Virus record (IMG/VR): IMGVR_UViG_2778261687_000008
Reading direction: 5' to 3' (one strand)
From: a virus
Lineage: Duplodnaviria; Heunggongvirae; Uroviricota; Caudoviricetes
Length of the DNA stretch: 15,253 bases
Shown here: positions 2,835 to 15,253 of the stretch, piece after piece
Layout of the letters: each line of letters starts with the position of its first letter
Numbering within the stretch: the stretch's first letter is position 1
Position numbers and translations under genes: made by a program
Notes under the pieces: generated by a model
Told to the model about the DNA's origin: nothing
What the model saw: the letters and a program-made list of their open reading frames with translations, nothing else
The model's database searches: none

Positions 2835-3262
2835 AAGCTGTGTGACGAAGTAACCACTCTTAACAGCATAACCAATTTTTTACGTACGTAAACCACTAAA
2901 TGATATTTGCGAGAATGCTACCGAGTATTGAAAACACCACTACAAATACATAAGCAAATCTCAACAAATAACCAACAAATAATTTACAGTGTTATTTTTA
3001 TCCGATTTAAATTGAACCTTCAAATTATAGATCACTTATAAATAACAGCCGTTAATATAAACTGGCTAATAGATTTATTTTTATTCAGCCACGAGCTATA
3101 AATAGGATTCGATAGAAAAAAGTTCAGATAAAAATAGAGATCTACTTCACAAATCAAACGAGAAACCAAAACTTACATCTTGAAATAATCACATTGATTA
3201 GATGAATATTTATCGCGCAGTGACATCATTTTTTAATAATAGTTCAAAAAAAAGGGCTCACG

Positions 3263-4345
3263 ATGAAAAAATTAACAGTGGCAATTTCTGCTGTAGCTGC
3301 ATCAGTACTGATGGCGATGTCTGCTCAGGCAGCTGAAATTTATAATAAAGACAGTAACAAGCTGGATCTGTACGGGAAAGTTAATGCTAAGCACTACTTC
3401 TCCTCTAATGATGCAGATGATGGTGATACTACTTATGCCCGTCTTGGCTTCAAAGGTGAAACCCAAATCAACGATCAGCTGACTGGTTTCGGTCAGTGGG
3501 AATATGAATTCAAAGGCAACCGCGCTGAATCTCAAGGTTCCTCCAAAGACAAAACCCGTCTTGCATTTGCAGGCCTGAAATTCGGTGACTACGGCTCAAT
3601 CGATTACGGCCGTAACTACGGTGTAGCATACGACATCGGTGCGTGGACTGACGTTCTGCCAGAATTCGGTGGCGATACCTGGACCCAAACAGATGTGTTC
3701 ATGACTGGTCGTACCACTGGTGTTGCAACCTATCGTAACAACGACTTCTTTGGTCTGGTTGATGGTCTGAACTTTGCTGCTCAGTATCAGGGTAAAAATG
3801 ACCGCACTGACGTAACTGAAGCTAATGGTGATGGTTTCGGTTTCTCCACTACTTATGAGTATGAAGGATTCGGTGTAGGTGCAACCTATGCTAAATCTGA
3901 CCGCACTAATAATCAGGTTATCTACGGTAACAACAGCCTGAATGCATCTGGTCAAAATGCTGAAGTATGGGCAGCTGGTCTGAAATATGATGCGAACAAC
4001 ATCTATCTGGCTACCACCTATTCTGAAACCCAGAACATGACTGTTTTTGGTAATAACCATATTGCCAACAAAGCACAAAACTTCGAAGTAGTTGCACAAT
4101 ATCAGTTCGACTTCGGTCTGCGTCCGTCCGTTGCTTACCTGCAATCTAAAGGAAAAGACTTGGGTGCGTGGGGTGATCAGGACCTGGTTGAATATATTGA
4201 TGTAGGTGCAACCTATTACTTCAACAAAAATATGTCCACTTTTGTTGATTACAAAATCAACCTGATTGATAAGAGCGATTTCACGAAAGCATCTGGCGTT
4301 GCTACCGATGATATCGTTGCTGTAGGTATGGTTTACCAGTTCTAA
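3263..4345 (+). CDS. nmpC: General bacterial porin, OmpC/OmpF/PhoE family (NmpC/Lc-type prophage porin), apparently intact
   Basis: 360 aa. Signal peptide ending AQA|AEIYNK, aromatic/glycine-rich beta-barrel pattern, C-terminal ...VYQF. AAAGGG Shine-Dalgarno upstream. Opposite strand to the flanking Q and lysis genes. Confidence 0.9.
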
Positions 4346-4533: not shown

Positions 4534-4917
4534 TTAATTAGAGTTATTAACAACGATATCCATCTCTAACCGGATATCTAATGCCATTAACATCCCTTCA
4601 ATTATGCCCTCAGCCTTCTGTAACCTTTTCCCGATATAACCATCAGAGCAGCAATGCTTACCTGCCAGTGACATGAATGTCATACCGACTACATAATAAT
4701 CTACTAATAAATCGTGCAAATCGCTGTTGTTCTTTTTCAGACGGGCCATGCACCCGCAAATAATCATCGCGTCATCGTCACAACATTGCGGGCGAGATTT
4801 TACTTTTGAAGTAATTAATCCCTTAAAACCGGCGGCAATGGACGACCAGGTCACATCTTCATGATTATTAGCCGCCCACGCTCCCCAACGCTCAAGAACC
4901 ATCTGAATATCACGCAT
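4534..4917 (-). CDS. quuD: Late-gene antiterminator Q (phage 21/82-type)
   Basis: 127 aa from MRDIQMV. Cysteine-rich (CC...C..C and CC) zinc-binding pattern. Matches my recollection of DLP12 QuuD. The ORF track's 132-aa start at 4932 is probably too long. Confidence 0.8.
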
Positions 4918-5002
4918 CAACTTACTCCACAAAAATCAGACCAGAACGCCAATTACAAGCAAAAATCAACAAAACAGTATTAGTTGATTGTTATCTCTGA
5001 CT

Positions 5003-5140
5003 TCATACTCCTGCTCCTGTCAGGGTTTTGGCGTAATTCTTCAGTATTCGGTAATCGGTCAAAACAGAACCGGGGAAACGATATAAGCGCAGATGCCCCC
5101 AGCGGTGGCGAAGAAGTTCTGCCATATAAAACTCAAACAT
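5003..5140 (-). CDS. ylcG: Small protein YlcG-like (45 aa)
   Basis: Manually translated ([45 protein letters not shown]). Below the ORF-track length cutoff. Its ATG overlaps the rusA stop (TGATG). Confidence 0.55.
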   Translation of the reverse strand: MFEFYMAELLRHRWGHLRLYRFPGSVLTDYRILKNYAKTLTGAGV

Positions 5141-5501
5141 CATTCATTCCCCATTTCGGTGATGGTCAGTTCCAGCCTCCCACCTTTGGTAACAGGCATC
5201 TTCACAACGCGGTAATCAACGACCTGAGCATCATCCAGCCAGAAACCTGCTTTGGTGAGTGCGTCAAAAGCGGCTTTTTGCAGATTATCCAGGTCACGGC
5301 GACGGCGATCCGGCATGTGGCACTCAATACGGATTTTCACTGGCATAGCCAGGCCGATATCCAGCATTGCGTTTTTAATGATTCGGGTGACGTTATCGCG
5401 GTATGCCTGCCCTTCTGCGCTGATGTGTGTGCGCCCGCGATTATGGCGGTAATAGCGGTTATTGCTCGGAGGCCAGGGAATGTGATGCTGTAGGTATTCA
5501 C
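5140..5501 (-). CDS. rusA: RusA Holliday-junction resolvase; N-terminus is frame-disrupted (possible pseudogene or non-canonical start)
   Basis: The core ...[24 protein letters not shown]...[28 protein letters not shown]... is in one frame back to a stop at 5521-5523, with no ATG/GTG/TTG before the Met at 5365-5367. A GTG-NTYSIT N-terminus-like segment (5481-5501) sits in a different frame. Confidence 0.6.
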
Positions 5502-5788
5502 GCCTTAATAACCCCCTCTTTCAGCCAGATAACCTGCGTTCTCGCCATACCTTCCAGCGCGCATTCTTTTGCATACTCAGCATCGACAAAATATGTGCGG
5601 CGGTCGATTTCGTCGTGACAGGCAGAACATGCAATGGTGGCAATAAGGTCTGGCGGTTTAATACCGGTGCCGCACAATCCAGCCAGCCGGATATGTGCCA
5701 GTACAGACGTTTCAGGGTTGCCATTACATACGCCAGTGATTCTTACCTGGCATTCCCGACCACGCGCTGCTTTTCTCAAATCAGCCAT
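5498..5788 (-). CDS. ybcO: DUF1364-family protein YbcO-like (putative nuclease)
   Basis: 96 aa from [10 protein letters not shown]. Cysteine-rich. Start overlaps the ninE stop (ATGGCTGA). Gene-order context ninB-ninE-ybcO-rusA. Confidence 0.75.
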
Positions 5789-5951
5789 GATTCCTCCTTG
5801 CTGCCAGTCGCAACCATTTTTTATCAACCAGGCTGGCGGTATATCCGAGCAGTGTTGGTATTTCGGATGGCTTCAGCTCAGGTTTACGCTTACGACGATT
5901 TGGTACTCTGTAGATGTGTCCGTTCATGACACGAATAAGCGGTGTAGCCAT
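5781..5951 (-). CDS. ninE: NinE-family protein (56 aa)
   Basis: Manually translated [59 protein letters not shown] overlaps the ninB stop (TAATG). Not in the ORF track because it is under 60 aa. Confidence 0.75.
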   Translation of the reverse strand: MATPLIRVMNGHIYRVPNRRKRKPELKPSEIPTLLGYTASLVDKKWLRLAARRNHG

Positions 5952-6406
5952 TACGCCTCCTGCTTGTCGCGCAGCAGCTGGAACTCGCAGCTCTGCGGAA
6001 TAGTCAGGTGGCAGCCAATATTCATCGCCCAGGCTTCAACCTTACACAGGAAGACATACATCTCTCCGGCATCAAGATCGGAGGTATGGCGTAACGACTG
6101 GATAGTGGTGATTTCACCGGTTACGACATCAACCAGTTCTTTGGTTTCATAACCGAGGTATGTGTGTTTGAGAGCTTCTTTTACCCATGCTGCGGTAGCG
6201 AACGATTTCCCCCTGCTGATAAGGTATTCACTGATTTCGCTGTACCACATGTGGCTGAGTGCATTCTGGGAAAGACTGCGTTTCTCACGCCACGGTTTAA
6301 GCACCATGCGAAAGCATTTTCCGTCCTCCAGATAAGGCTGGATCTGCTGGCCGATAGCGGTGAAGTTGCCACGATGTAATTTGATGCCATCTTGTGGTAG
6401 GTTCAC
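5951..6406 (-). CDS. ybcN: NinB-family recombination protein (YbcN-like)
   Basis: 151 aa. GTG start preceded by GGAGGT. NinB-like pattern (R..SL.QN...) and position in the nin region. Confidence 0.8.
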
Positions 6407-6832: not shown

Positions 6833-7849
6833 ATGACTCAAACTCCACTATTACTTGCAATCATATTTTTATTGGTTGTTCTTGTTCTATATATAGCTGC
6901 AATCAAACGCATCAAAAAAATACAATTAGAATTAAGTGATAGCAATCAAAAAAATGAAGAATACAAATCTCGCTTTGCAGATTATTTTAATGTGGAAGAG
7001 GAATGTAAGAAGCTTATTGAGAAAACAGAGCAAGAATGCTCCATTATAAAAGAAGAGTCCCAAAAAGTAAAAGAAAATGCCAATAATGAACTAACAAACA
7101 CCATTGAAAAAATGGATGGTATCAATAAACAAATCCAAGAACTAAGAAGAACTTATAAAGAGAAGAAAGAAATATATGATAAGCTAGTAAAGCAAATTTC
7201 TATTTATTCAGAAGATGTTGAACTAGCCGAACTAGGATTTTACGAACCTCATTTTAATTTTGAAGATTCAGAGCAATTTAAAAACAAAATAAAATCCATC
7301 AGGGATGAACAGAAATTAATGCTGCGGGATAAAACCCACTCTGGTGCAGTATATTGCACAACCCAATGGACTGTTGAAGGCTCTCGAGCAGAGGGTAAAA
7401 AAATGACAGACAGAAATATTAGGCTAACTACTAGAGCATTTAATAATGAATGTGATGCTGCAATTAGTAATTGCACGTGGAAAAATATCACTAAAATGGA
7501 AGAACGCATCACAAAGGCATTTGAGGACATAAATAAACTAAACGAGCAAAATCACATATATATAAATACTAAATACCTTAATAAAAAACTTGAGGAGTTG
7601 TGGCTTACCCATGAATATCGTGAGCAAAAACAGAAAGAAAAAGAAGAACAGGCAGAAATAAGGGCACAAATGAGAGAGGAGGAGCGTGCACAACGAGAAA
7701 TAGAAAAGGCCATGCAAGACGCAGAGGCAGAAGAGCGCCGTTATAAAAAAGCAATTGAAGCTGCAAGAAAGGAAATGGAAAAAGTTACTGGTGACATGAA
7801 GCAGCGCCTCGAAAATCGCATTGCCGAACTAGAACAGAGTTTGTCGTAG
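6833..7849 (+). CDS. Membrane-anchored coiled-coil protein (DUF4041-like N-terminal module; cargo gene A)
   Basis: 338 aa. Single N-terminal TM helix (LLLAIIFLLVVLVLYIAAI), then long E/K/Q-rich heptad-like coiled-coil segments and a highly charged C-terminus. AAGGA Shine-Dalgarno 10 nt upstream. AT-rich codon usage. Confidence 0.7.
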   Translation: MTQTPLLLAIIFLLVVLVLYIAAIKRIKKIQLELSDSNQKNEEYKSRFADYFNVEEECKKLIEKTEQECSIIKEESQKVKENANNELTNTIEKMDGINKQIQELRRTYKEKKEIYDKLVKQISIYSEDVELAELGFYEPHFNFEDSEQFKNKIKSIRDEQKLMLRDKTHSGAVYCTTQWTVEGSRAEGKKMTDRNIRLTTRAFNNECDAAISNCTWKNITKMEERITKAFEDINKLNEQNHIYINTKYLNKKLEELWLTHEYREQKQKEKEEQAEIRAQMREEERAQREIEKAMQDAEAEERRYKKAIEAARKEMEKVTGDMKQRLENRIAELEQSLS

Positions 7850-7879
7850 GCTGAATCAAAGCATCAAAGAGCATTATCC

Positions 7880-8335
7880 ATGGCACAACAAACCAAACAA
7901 GGTCATGTTTATATTATTTCGAACATAGGTTCTTTTGGGGAGAATGTTTATAAAATAGGCATGACACGACGTCTTGATCCACAAGACCGTGTAAATGAGC
8001 TTGGTGATGCATCTGTTCCTTTTATTTTTGATGTGCATGCCATGATTTATTCGGAGGACGCTCCATCATTAGAAAAAAAACTACATGATGTCTTCGATAA
8101 AAAGAGAGTCAATCTTGTAAATCGTAGAAAAGAGTTTTTCTATGTTACTCTGGATGAGATCAAAGAAGCTGTTAAAAAACACTCTGATTCAGAAATTGAA
8201 TTTATTGAGACAGCAGTCGCAAAAGACTTTAATGAGTCATTGGCTATTCGTAATCATGAAAATAAAAAAAGCGACAACAGCAACTCATCAATCATACTTG
8301 AGCGAAAAATCCCAGAGTTTGCAGATGTAATTTAA
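7880..8335 (+). CDS. T5orf172 / GIY-YIG-like nuclease-domain protein (cargo gene B); in frame with gene A across a single TAG
   Basis: 151 aa. Motifs GHVYIISN...VYKIGMTRR...R..EL...PF fit the GIY-YIG / T5orf172 (MUG113) pattern. Weak Shine-Dalgarno. Same reading frame as gene A with 10 sense codons between. Confidence 0.65.
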   Translation: MAQQTKQGHVYIISNIGSFGENVYKIGMTRRLDPQDRVNELGDASVPFIFDVHAMIYSEDAPSLEKKLHDVFDKKRVNLVNRRKEFFYVTLDEIKEAVKKHSDSEIEFIETAVAKDFNESLAIRNHENKKSDNSNSSIILERKIPEFADVI

Positions 8336-8694: not shown

Positions 8695-10242
8695 ATGACA
8701 AACAAAAACAAACTTGAGAACTTTGAAGACTTACTTCTGGGGAAGTTTTTAGATCCCATACATGGAGTGATTCGAATAACTAAGCTAGAAAAAAAGATAA
8801 TTGACCATCCTTTATTCCAACGACTACGAGATATCAGGCAGAACACGTTTCTATATAAAGTATTTCCTTCTGCAATGCACTCTCGCTTTGAACACTCTGT
8901 CGGTGTAATGCATTTATCGTATGAAATATTAAAAAATATTGATTTAAATGCACTAATTTACAATCGAAAAAATATGGGCATTGATCTATATTTAGATATA
9001 AAAAAAATGCCTTCAAGTCTTATACAGGAGTTACGTATTGCAGCATTGTTACACGATGTTGGGCATGGCCCACTTGCCCACCAATTCGATAGTTTTGCAA
9101 TATCCGTAAAAGATTTCAAAGAAAAATGCAAAACTGAAGGAAATAAACAATACGATAAGATTATATCTTTAAGTGATAATGACAAGTTAACCCACGAACA
9201 AGTATCATGTATTTTTATTAAAGAAATTATTGAAGAATTAAAAAATGAAGCCCAAGATAAATCAAATGACGACGATGTCTATAAAGAAAACATAGCGGCT
9301 ATTAATCCAGAAAGCATTATAAAAATTGTTGATAAAAGATATGATTTTAAAAATAACATTGAGGGAGTAAATGTATATCCTTTATTAGGTTCAATCATAT
9401 CATCTTCACCTATAGATGCGGACAGAATGGACTACCTACTTAGAGATAGCTACTTCTCCGGCGTTAAATATGGGATTTATGATTATGGACGATTATTAAT
9501 GTCATTTATTCCTGTGAAAGTTGAAAATAGTGTTTACCTGGCATATAAAGAAAGTGGTATGGATTCAATACTAGAATTTGCCAATGCAAGAAGTGGGCTT
9601 TATAGTCAAGTTTATTTTCATAAGACCAATCGTGCACTATCTGCGATGCTTAACAAAGCGTGTTCTAGAAAAAAAACTGATGATGTTGTCTATTTAAAAT
9701 CTAAAAACACTCTCATTGAGTCCATCAAACACTTTTATCGTGAAAACCCAGACAAAACGTTTTTAGAAAACACTCTTAAAAACACATTAGATAAAAATTC
9801 TCAAGCTATAATTCAAGATATTGTTGATAGAAATGTTTGGAAAAAAATATATGAAAAAAAACACACGTTTTCTAATGTTAACATTTCCGACAACAGATAC
9901 AAAGAATATAAACAAAATATATCTAAGAAAATCAACAAAATCATTGAGGATAATTTAAAAGGAGATGAATGGGTTCTTGATTTTCAGATTGAAGATAACT
10001 TTAAAGATATCGATACAAGTCAAGCTAAAATAATAAAAAAAGAAACAGGCGGCAAGTATACAATAAATGATTTATGTAAGTATAACGATGTACTTCAACC
10101 CTATCACTATGTTAAATTCTTTATTCGAGTTTTTGTTTCTAAGACAACTCAACTCCAAAACACCGAAGAAATTAATGTGTTAATAAAAAAAATAGATAAA
10201 TGTCTTAATGATGAGATTGATCATATTAAAAAAGACAAGTAG
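8695..10242 (+). CDS. HD-domain dNTP triphosphohydrolase, SAMHD1/dGTPase-like (cargo gene C)
   Basis: 515 aa. Motifs DPIHG (aa 20-24), RFEHSVGV (H67), LLHDVGHGPLAH (H120-D121) and DADRMDYLLRD (aa 241-251) align with the SAMHD1-type catalytic core as I recall it. AAGGAAAG Shine-Dalgarno. Lys-rich, divergent C-terminal third. Confidence 0.85.
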   Translation: MTNKNKLENFEDLLLGKFLDPIHGVIRITKLEKKIIDHPLFQRLRDIRQNTFLYKVFPSAMHSRFEHSVGVMHLSYEILKNIDLNALIYNRKNMGIDLYLDIKKMPSSLIQELRIAALLHDVGHGPLAHQFDSFAISVKDFKEKCKTEGNKQYDKIISLSDNDKLTHEQVSCIFIKEIIEELKNEAQDKSNDDDVYKENIAAINPESIIKIVDKRYDFKNNIEGVNVYPLLGSIISSSPIDADRMDYLLRDSYFSGVKYGIYDYGRLLMSFIPVKVENSVYLAYKESGMDSILEFANARSGLYSQVYFHKTNRALSAMLNKACSRKKTDDVVYLKSKNTLIESIKHFYRENPDKTFLENTLKNTLDKNSQAIIQDIVDRNVWKKIYEKKHTFSNVNISDNRYKEYKQNISKKINKIIEDNLKGDEWVLDFQIEDNFKDIDTSQAKIIKKETGGKYTINDLCKYNDVLQPYHYVKFFIRVFVSKTTQLQNTEEINVLIKKIDKCLNDEIDHIKKDK

Positions 10243-11592: not shown

Positions 11593-11786
11593 AGCTCCAC
11601 CCCGTAAATCCAGTCAGTGTTCGTCAGGTCGAGTTTTGGTTTGCCGGCTGTCACGCCAGCCTGTTGCTTGTTTCGGTTGATTTCGAGCTGGGTCCACTTG
11701 TCGCGGAGTTTGGCCGGACTCAGCACGTTACCGGACCAGAAGTTGTCCTGGCATGCCCAGCGGAACAGTACACACATGTCGCGGTG
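11589..11786 (-). pseudogene. O: C-terminal fragment of replication initiator O (N-terminal origin-binding part absent)
   Basis: The frame ends ...FWSGNVLSPAKLRDKWTQLEINRNKQQAGVTAGKPKLDLTNTDWIYGVEL, matching the lambda O C-terminus. Upstream residues of the ORF are antisense to exo and not O-like. The upper boundary is approximate. Confidence 0.7.
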
Positions 11787-11787
11787 G

Positions 11788-11829
11788 TTCCTGAAACAGA
11801 AAGCCACTGAGCAGAAGGTGGCAGCATGA
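11788..11829 (+). pseudogene. bet: 3' remnant of bet (Red-beta) fused at a deletion junction
   Basis: Last about 13 codons encode [13 protein letters not shown] with the stop overlapping the exo ATG (ATGA), matching the lambda Bet C-terminus as recalled. Nothing Bet-like lies further upstream. Confidence 0.5.
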
Positions 11830-13884: not shown

Positions 13885-14121
13885 ATGTCTCGACTAATCA
13901 CTTTACAGGACTGGGCTAAAGAAGAATTTGGGGACTTAGCACCAAGTGAGCGAGTTCTGAAAAAATACGCGCAAGGGAAAATGATGGCCCCACCCGCTAT
14001 AAAAGTTGGTCGCTACTGGATGATTGACCGAAATTCCCGTTTTGTAGGAACGCTGGCAGAACCGCAACTCCCAATAAACGCAAACCCAAAACTCCAACGG
14101 ATAATCGCTGATGGCTGCTAG
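13885..14121 (+). CDS. xis: Putative excisionase / recombination directionality factor
   Basis: 78-aa ORF with strong AAGAGGAGG Shine-Dalgarno. Ends 11 nt inside the integrase ORF, the typical xis-int arrangement. Not lambda-Xis-like in sequence. Confidence 0.55.
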   Translation: MSRLITLQDWAKEEFGDLAPSERVLKKYAQGKMMAPPAIKVGRYWMIDRNSRFVGTLAEPQLPINANPKLQRIIADGC

Positions 14122-15253
14122 ACCCCGATCTCACAAAATCTCTATACCCAATTTATATTGCAAATTAGATAAGCGAACCGGAAAGGTATATTGGCAATAC
14201 AAACATCCACTATCCGGTCGTTTTCATAGCTTAGGAACTGATGAGAATGAAGCAAAACAAGTTGCTACTGAAGCAAATACCATTATTGCTGAACAACGTA
14301 CCAGACAAATATTAAGCGTCAATGAGCGTCTGGAAAGAATGAAAGGCAGGCGCTCAGACATTACGGTGACAGAATGGCTTGATAAATATATTTCTATCCA
14401 GGAGGACAGGCTGCAACATAATGAACTAAGACCCAACTCCTATCGGCAAAAAGGCAAACCCATTCGTCTTTTCCGTGAGCATTGTGGAATGCAACACCTC
14501 AAGGATATTACCGCACTTGATATTGCCGAAATAATTGATGCTGTAAAGGCTGAAGGTCATAACAGGATGGCGCAAGTCGTGAGAATGGTGTTGATCGACG
14601 TCTTCAAAGAAGCACAACACGCAGGACATGTTCCGCCAGGATTTAACCCAGCGCAGGCAACAAAACAACCGCGAAATCGAGTAAACCGCCAAAGATTGTC
14701 ACTGCCCGAATGGCAGGCAATATTTGAAAGCGTAAGCAGACGGCAGCCCTATTTAAAATGCGGCATGCTACTTGCTCTTGTTACTGGACAACGTTTAGGC
14801 GATATCTGCAATTTGAAATTCTCTGATATATGGGACGACATGTTGCACATTACTCAGGAAAAAACCGGTTCAAAACTTGCTATTCCGCTTAACCTGAAAT
14901 GCGATGCTCTGAATATTACCCTTCGTGAAGTTATATCTCAGTGCAGGGATGCTGTTGTTAGTAAATATCTGGTCCATTACCGTCACACTACCTCTCAAGC
15001 AAACAGAGGAGACCAGGTTTCTGCAAATACTCTGACAACGGCTTTTAAAAAGGCCAGGGAAAAATGTGGCATAAAATGGGAGCAAGGAACTGCGCCCACA
15101 TTTCATGAGCAGCGATCTCTGTCAGAACGGTTATATCGGGAACAGGGTCTGGATACGCAAAAGTTGTTAGGCCATAAATCCAGAAAAATGACCGACCGAT
15201 ACAATGATGATCGTGGTAAAGACTGGGTTATCGTAGATATCAAAACAGCATAG
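14111..15253 (+). CDS. int: Phage integrase, tyrosine recombinase family
   Basis: 380 aa. C-terminal catalytic pattern: Arg box, HEQRS (HxxR), LLGHKS and Tyr in DRYNDD. Stop TAG is at the last bases of the window, so att sites are expected outside it. Confidence 0.9.
   Translation: MAARPRSHKISIPNLYCKLDKRTGKVYWQYKHPLSGRFHSLGTDENEAKQVATEANTIIAEQRTRQILSVNERLERMKGRRSDITVTEWLDKYISIQEDRLQHNELRPNSYRQKGKPIRLFREHCGMQHLKDITALDIAEIIDAVKAEGHNRMAQVVRMVLIDVFKEAQHAGHVPPGFNPAQATKQPRNRVNRQRLSLPEWQAIFESVSRRQPYLKCGMLLALVTGQRLGDICNLKFSDIWDDMLHITQEKTGSKLAIPLNLKCDALNITLREVISQCRDAVVSKYLVHYRHTTSQANRGDQVSANTLTTAFKKAREKCGIKWEQGTAPTFHEQRSLSERLYREQGLDTQKLLGHKSRKMTDRYNDDRGKDWVIVDIKTA

Follow-up and report, generated by a model that had tools for sequence, protein, structure and literature searches.

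Introduction

In the stretch of viral DNA analysed here (15,253 nt, called the window below), the gene for the RusA resolvase lies on the minus strand with its N-terminal segment and its catalytic core in different reading frames. This raises the question of whether a base is missing from the assembly only, whether the gene is still read by way of a non-canonical start or a frameshift, or whether it is a pseudogene, these being the three explanations offered in the original prediction. The rusA of K-12 is normally silent, and it is solely the insertion of IS2 or IS10 upstream that activates it, while in the protein the residues D70, D72 and D91 are catalytic and the loop 15–28 is implicated in recognition (PMC1636454).

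The lesion itself, its inheritance and the frame structure favour the last of the three explanations. Very probably, rusA is here a recently formed pseudogene that goes back to the loss of the A from codon 8 (TTA) in a common ancestor of a small E. coli lineage, which has passed the defect on, as neutral decay of an unexpressed gene in a cryptic prophage.

Lesion and reading frames

The minus strand from 4534 to 6406 is the nin/Q segment of a DLP12-type lambdoid prophage, with the genes ybcN (NinB-like), ninE, ybcO, rusA, ylcG and quuD. The coordinates used in the following are collected in Table 1.

Table 1. Positions in the window of the rusA lesion, of the two reading frames that it separates and of adjacent genes.
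Feature	Position	Strand	Remarks
ybcO (DUF1364, 96 aa as annotated in relatives)	5498..5788	-	PF07102 at 140 bits
rusA pseudogene	5140..5501	-	362 nt vs 363 in the intact gene; GTG 5501-5499 to TGA 5142-5140
1-nt deletion site	5478..5479	-	A of Leu8 TTA gone (a T on the + strand)
Start-codon frame	5337..5501	-	54 codons; stop TGA 5339-5337
RusA core frame	5140..5520	-	open from just past TGA 5523-5521; stop 5142-5140
ylcG (46 aa)	5003..5143	-	ATG overlaps the rusA stop
quuD, late antiterminator Q (127 aa as annotated in relatives)	4534..4917	-	PF06530 at 178.8 bits

A re-reading of the minus strand bears out every coordinate and translation that had been put forward for the frame conflict. The GTG at 5501-5499 is followed by AAT ACC TAC AGC ATC ACA, down to 5481, and residues 1–7 of this frame are those of RusA (V/M-NTYSIT); from there on it is out of frame for 46 codons (FPGLRAIT...). 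The core frame, one base back from the start-codon frame, encodes Pro9 to Glu120 with the C-terminus ...TITEMGNE, and D70, D72 and D91 are all encoded in it (including WLDDAQ), the same as in the intact allele. Its translation (5140-5520) matches the Pfam RusA profile PF05866 at 80.6 bits, with a score cut-off of 22.8, over profile positions 1–123 of 124. The first ATG, GTG or TTG of the core frame is however ATG 5367-5365 (Met46), which opens an ORF of 75 aa (5140..5367). No single ORF thus connects the start codon with the catalytic core, the GTG and the core being in different frames.

The intact rusA of strain CV839-06 (WP_001099700.1, 120 aa) was aligned with 401 window bases (5130-5530), and the single difference is one missing base. 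The 1-nt indel that had been predicted near codon 8 is accordingly a 1-nt deletion inside this codon, where ACA TTA CCC TGG of the intact gene reads ACA TT- CCC TGG in the window. The deleted A is outside any homopolymer. No second lesion was found in the alignment over the 362-base gene and its immediate flanks, and since the rest of rusA is identical to the intact allele, the lesion is young. The intact allele is in turn identical to K-12 RusA (PDB 1Q8R) at 118/120 residues, aligned over the full 120, and the RusA N-terminus given in the original prediction agrees with the same PDB entry.

It is important to note that the GTG is not part of the anomaly. RefSeq gives intact rusA the same start, again in overlap with the stop of ybcO, so the prediction was right on this point; in the window the ybcO TGA (5500-5498) overlaps it in GTGA, which suggests translational coupling. 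Compared with the intact rusA (ybcP) of E. coli DLP12-type prophages (WP_001099700.1; K-12 RusA PDB 1Q8R, 2H8C, 2H8E), the window thus has the same gene, the same neighbours in the order ybcN-ninE-ybcO-rusA-ylcG-quuD and the same GTG/ybcO-stop overlap, but it is without one base in codon 8, and for that reason its start and its catalytic core are in different frames.

Occurrence of the deletion in other genomes

Single-base indels are the commonest assembly error, and some of the other assemblies with a broken rusA look error-prone, one of them (L007, GCA_949813155.1) also having split ydaT and O genes. The real rusA of the window could then be intact and the missing A be an artefact of the consensus. 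The occurrence of the deletion in other genomes bears directly on this point.

Among the 2088 complete E. coli genomes that have this stretch, not one (0/2088) matches a 61-mer across the site at 100%, and the best matches all have one extra base, that is, the A is present in the same context in 2088 complete genomes. The reference rusA genes, which could have turned out to have the window's sequence and frame, are intact. An exact 31-mer across the deletion likewise gave no match in the species-representative genome collection, IMG/VR or the JGI metagenomes. The absence from all 2088 complete genomes indicates that the deletion is young and confined to one lineage.

Carriers of the deletion could be found by an exact-product look-up of a marker of this lineage, namely the 338-aa truncated product of the SNIPE gene described below, which results from a TAG nonsense codon at 7847-7849. 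Three contigs were returned, and the deletion-bearing 31-mer is present in 3/3. The contig NLGV01000034.1 of the NCBI draft GCA_002226155.1 is 100% identical to the window (15253/15253), and so is the Logan assembly of SRR9914100 over 11980/11980 positions, while the Logan assembly of DRR386160 has 2 SNPs in 4271 nt relative to the window and keeps the deletion. The three are independent read sets from at least two strains. B-1109 and 730V1, which with 99.9% identity come closest to the window among the complete genomes, have neither the deletion nor the TAG marker; the deletion thus travels with the marker.

Over the 15 kb, the window differs from B-1109 and 730V1 by 8 and 9 SNPs, respectively, by a deletion of ~4.4 kb, and by 1–2 single-base indels. 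The sole single-base indel shared against both genomes is the one in rusA, the other being an extra base at window position 3116 relative to 730V1 alone. An assembly riddled with indels would not show so few of them over 15 kb.

The same deletion in independent assemblies and in a diverged strain, at a site that is no homopolymer, indicates a genuine mutation inherited in a small lineage. A consensus artefact would have to have arisen in the same place in three separately sequenced samples, one of them from a strain 2 SNPs apart, and to co-segregate with the SNIPE nonsense SNP, and we consider it very improbable. As at least three independently sequenced samples have the deletion in common, one of them from a slightly diverged strain, the assembly error entertained in the original prediction is effectively excluded.

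Possible protein products

If the deletion is real, the remaining question is whether any RusA could still be made from the gene. Were peptidyl-tRNAPro to slip by -1 at U_UCC_CUG_G, from CCU to CCC, the exact RusA frame would geometrically be restored and the full-length protein be made with L8F as the sole change; the gene would then be functional at a low, possibly regulated, level. CCC and CCU are decoded by the same proline tRNAs, which speaks for such recoding; against it speaks that sites of this type as a rule slip at a background rate well under 1%. Moreover, the X_XXY_YYZ tandem-slippery heptamer is absent. The sequence is A_UUC_CCU, at which re-pairing is possible for the Pro tRNA alone, while tRNAPhe would need to re-pair on AUU. 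A Shine-Dalgarno-like stimulator is absent ~10 nt upstream, the RNA fold of the downstream 93 nt is no better than that of shuffled sequences (z = -0.45), and an Rfam search gave no match.

The two-frame arrangement is also found in 0/2088 complete genomes and in none of the viral, genome and metagenome collections. A frameshift configuration that is absent elsewhere points to a fresh mutation rather than to a conserved programmed signal. Programmed -1 frameshifting as in dnaX, the IS1 and IS911 transposases or lambda G/GT resembles the window in that two overlapping frames are present whose -1 fusion gives a sensible protein. The window is however without the slippery heptamer, the stimulatory structure, the Shine-Dalgarno sequence and the conservation of these systems, and its unshifted ancestor is a single continuous ORF. 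We therefore give recoding into a functional gene very little credence.

Traces of active RusA (L8F) from a -1 slip of peptidyl-tRNAPro are possible in principle. That the deletion has by chance made a weak slip site (C_CCU to CCC) from which trace full-length RusA-L8F is still made is, in our estimate, a very slim prospect; if true, the lineage would keep a leaky backup resolvase instead of none.

A different option is a truncated C-terminal product with some function, either the 75 aa from ATG 5367 or 67–69 aa made by termination-reinitiation at ATG 5346 or GTG 5340. Such a fragment keeps D70, D72 and D91, the 75-aa ORF is routinely emitted by gene callers, and the frame-0 stop overlaps GTG 5340-5338 as GTGA, like the ybcO/rusA junction. 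On the other hand, a Shine-Dalgarno sequence is absent before ATG 5367, where the preceding bases are cccgaatcattaaaaacgca. Residues 1–45 would be gone, including the 15–28 loop implicated in junction and sequence recognition (PMC1636454). As more than one third of a 120-residue single-domain protein is missing, stable folding of a C-terminal fragment without residues 1–45 or more is unlikely. The arrangement has, in addition, arisen as a side effect of a deletion confined to one lineage and is not conserved. A functional fragment is thus highly unlikely.

The overlap of TGA 5339-5337 with GTG 5340-5338 (Val54), with ATG 5346-5344 (Met52) just upstream, is a chance mimic of the ybcO/rusA coupling junction in this part of the minus strand (5337-5346), and reinitiation at GTG 5340-5338 after the frame-0 stop is conceivable.

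As a non-canonical start, ATT 5481-5479, located in the core frame just before Pro9, was considered and rejected, a Shine-Dalgarno-like sequence being absent upstream of it. For the second explanation of the original prediction, a non-canonical start or a frameshift, there is consequently a signal for neither, and the lesion is not conserved. A search for exact copies of the 54-aa frame-0 product gave no hit, probably since it is passed over by gene callers.

The pseudogene can then be described as follows. One base would have been lost spontaneously in the ancestor of the lineage and passed on. Ribosomes starting at the GTG, coupled to the ybcO stop, would add seven RusA residues and then 46 out-of-frame codons before stopping at TGA 5339-5337. 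The frame with the recognition loop (15–28) and Asp70, Asp72 and Asp91 would offer no start codon with a ribosome-binding site, so that no full-length resolvase is expected at a meaningful level. Together with the missing Shine-Dalgarno sequence and the loss of the early promoters (see below), this frame structure leads us to infer that the gene is unexpressed and gives no functional product. For annotation, we recommend the label of a frameshifted pseudogene for rusA and no gene calls for the ORFs of 54 and 75 aa. Beyond correct annotation the lesion is of little importance. One consequence would be that, unlike in K-12, activating rusA by an IS would not make up for a ruv defect in this lineage.

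Comparison with other rusA alleles

The 75-aa RusA product is emitted by gene callers in very many assemblies. Five loci with this product were examined. Four of them have independent single-base indels elsewhere in the N-terminal half of rusA, and in the fifth rusA is intact and simply called short. The independent single-base indels in the N-terminal half in other E. coli assemblies are those of loci L004, L006, L007 and L008, with L012 also listed; in L007 an A is inserted 2–3 nt from the site deleted in the window. It appears that rusA has been lost repeatedly, although assembly errors may account for some of the cases.

The allele of L004 is that of the O104:H4 outbreak lineage, where PGAP labels it a 'frameshifted' pseudogene. 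This rusA (e.g. AAF13_RS14910, strain C227-11) is like the one in the window in having a single-base deletion in the N-terminal half, the same neighbourhood and clonal inheritance. Its lesion lies however around codon 30, in GCAGAGGGG, and not in codon 8, and the different position means that the two are independent events. The O104:H4 allele is present in 17 complete RefSeq genomes, whereas the window allele is present in none.

Prophage context

The prophage adjoins icd, with the integrase at 14111-15253 on the plus strand. A DLP12-like nin/Q/lysis module is here joined with an integrase immediately adjacent to icd (window 14111-15253; locus L009 15666-16916), where e14 and phage 21 attach; DLP12 of K-12 is instead located at argU.

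Two further lesions are present in the window. The first concerns the anti-phage defence gene PD-Lambda-1/SNIPE at 6833-8335 on the plus strand, with DUF4041 and T5orf172/GIY-YIG domains. The gene is intact in B-1109 and 730V1 (500 aa), and in the window a CAG to TAG change produces the nonsense codon used above as the lineage marker, which splits it into ORFs of 338 and 151 aa. This codon is common to the same lineage as the rusA deletion.

The second is the ~4.4-kb deletion relative to B-1109, whose junction at ~11785-11789 shows ~5 nt of microhomology and joins the 3' end of O, the replication gene, to the final bases of bet. On the map of B-1109, the loss comprises most of O, a ydaT-like gene, the regulators similar to cro and cI, kil, gam and most of bet; the deletion thereby takes out the immunity and early-promoter region. 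In 730V1, two IS5-family insertions are found in this region instead.

The loss of rusA would then be the neutral decay of an unexpressed gene in a cryptic DLP12-like prophage beside icd that is also without its immunity and early-promoter region; for a silent gene in an element without early promoters, decay is what one would expect. Selection for the loss of RusA, rather than neutrality, may be an alternative reading. The kind of event is already known, namely gene decay in a cryptic lambdoid prophage leading to an ordinary pseudogene. With three independent lesions in one lineage (the rusA frameshift, the PD-Lambda-1 nonsense codon and the deletion of the immunity region), the window provides a clean, datable case of the stepwise decay of such a prophage.

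Finally, some other genes of the window can be mentioned. The gene quuD and the lysis cassette essD-rrrD-rzpD (1519-2474 and upstream), whose genes appear intact, are separated by an intact gene for a 360-aa OmpC/NmpC-type porin (3263-4345, plus strand). The moron slot flanked by ren/P and ybcN contains, beside the broken PD-Lambda-1, an intact gene for an HD-domain protein of 515 aa (8695-10242, plus strand). PADLOC gave no match for it and Pfam only a weak one, to HD, and it may be an uncharacterised defence gene.
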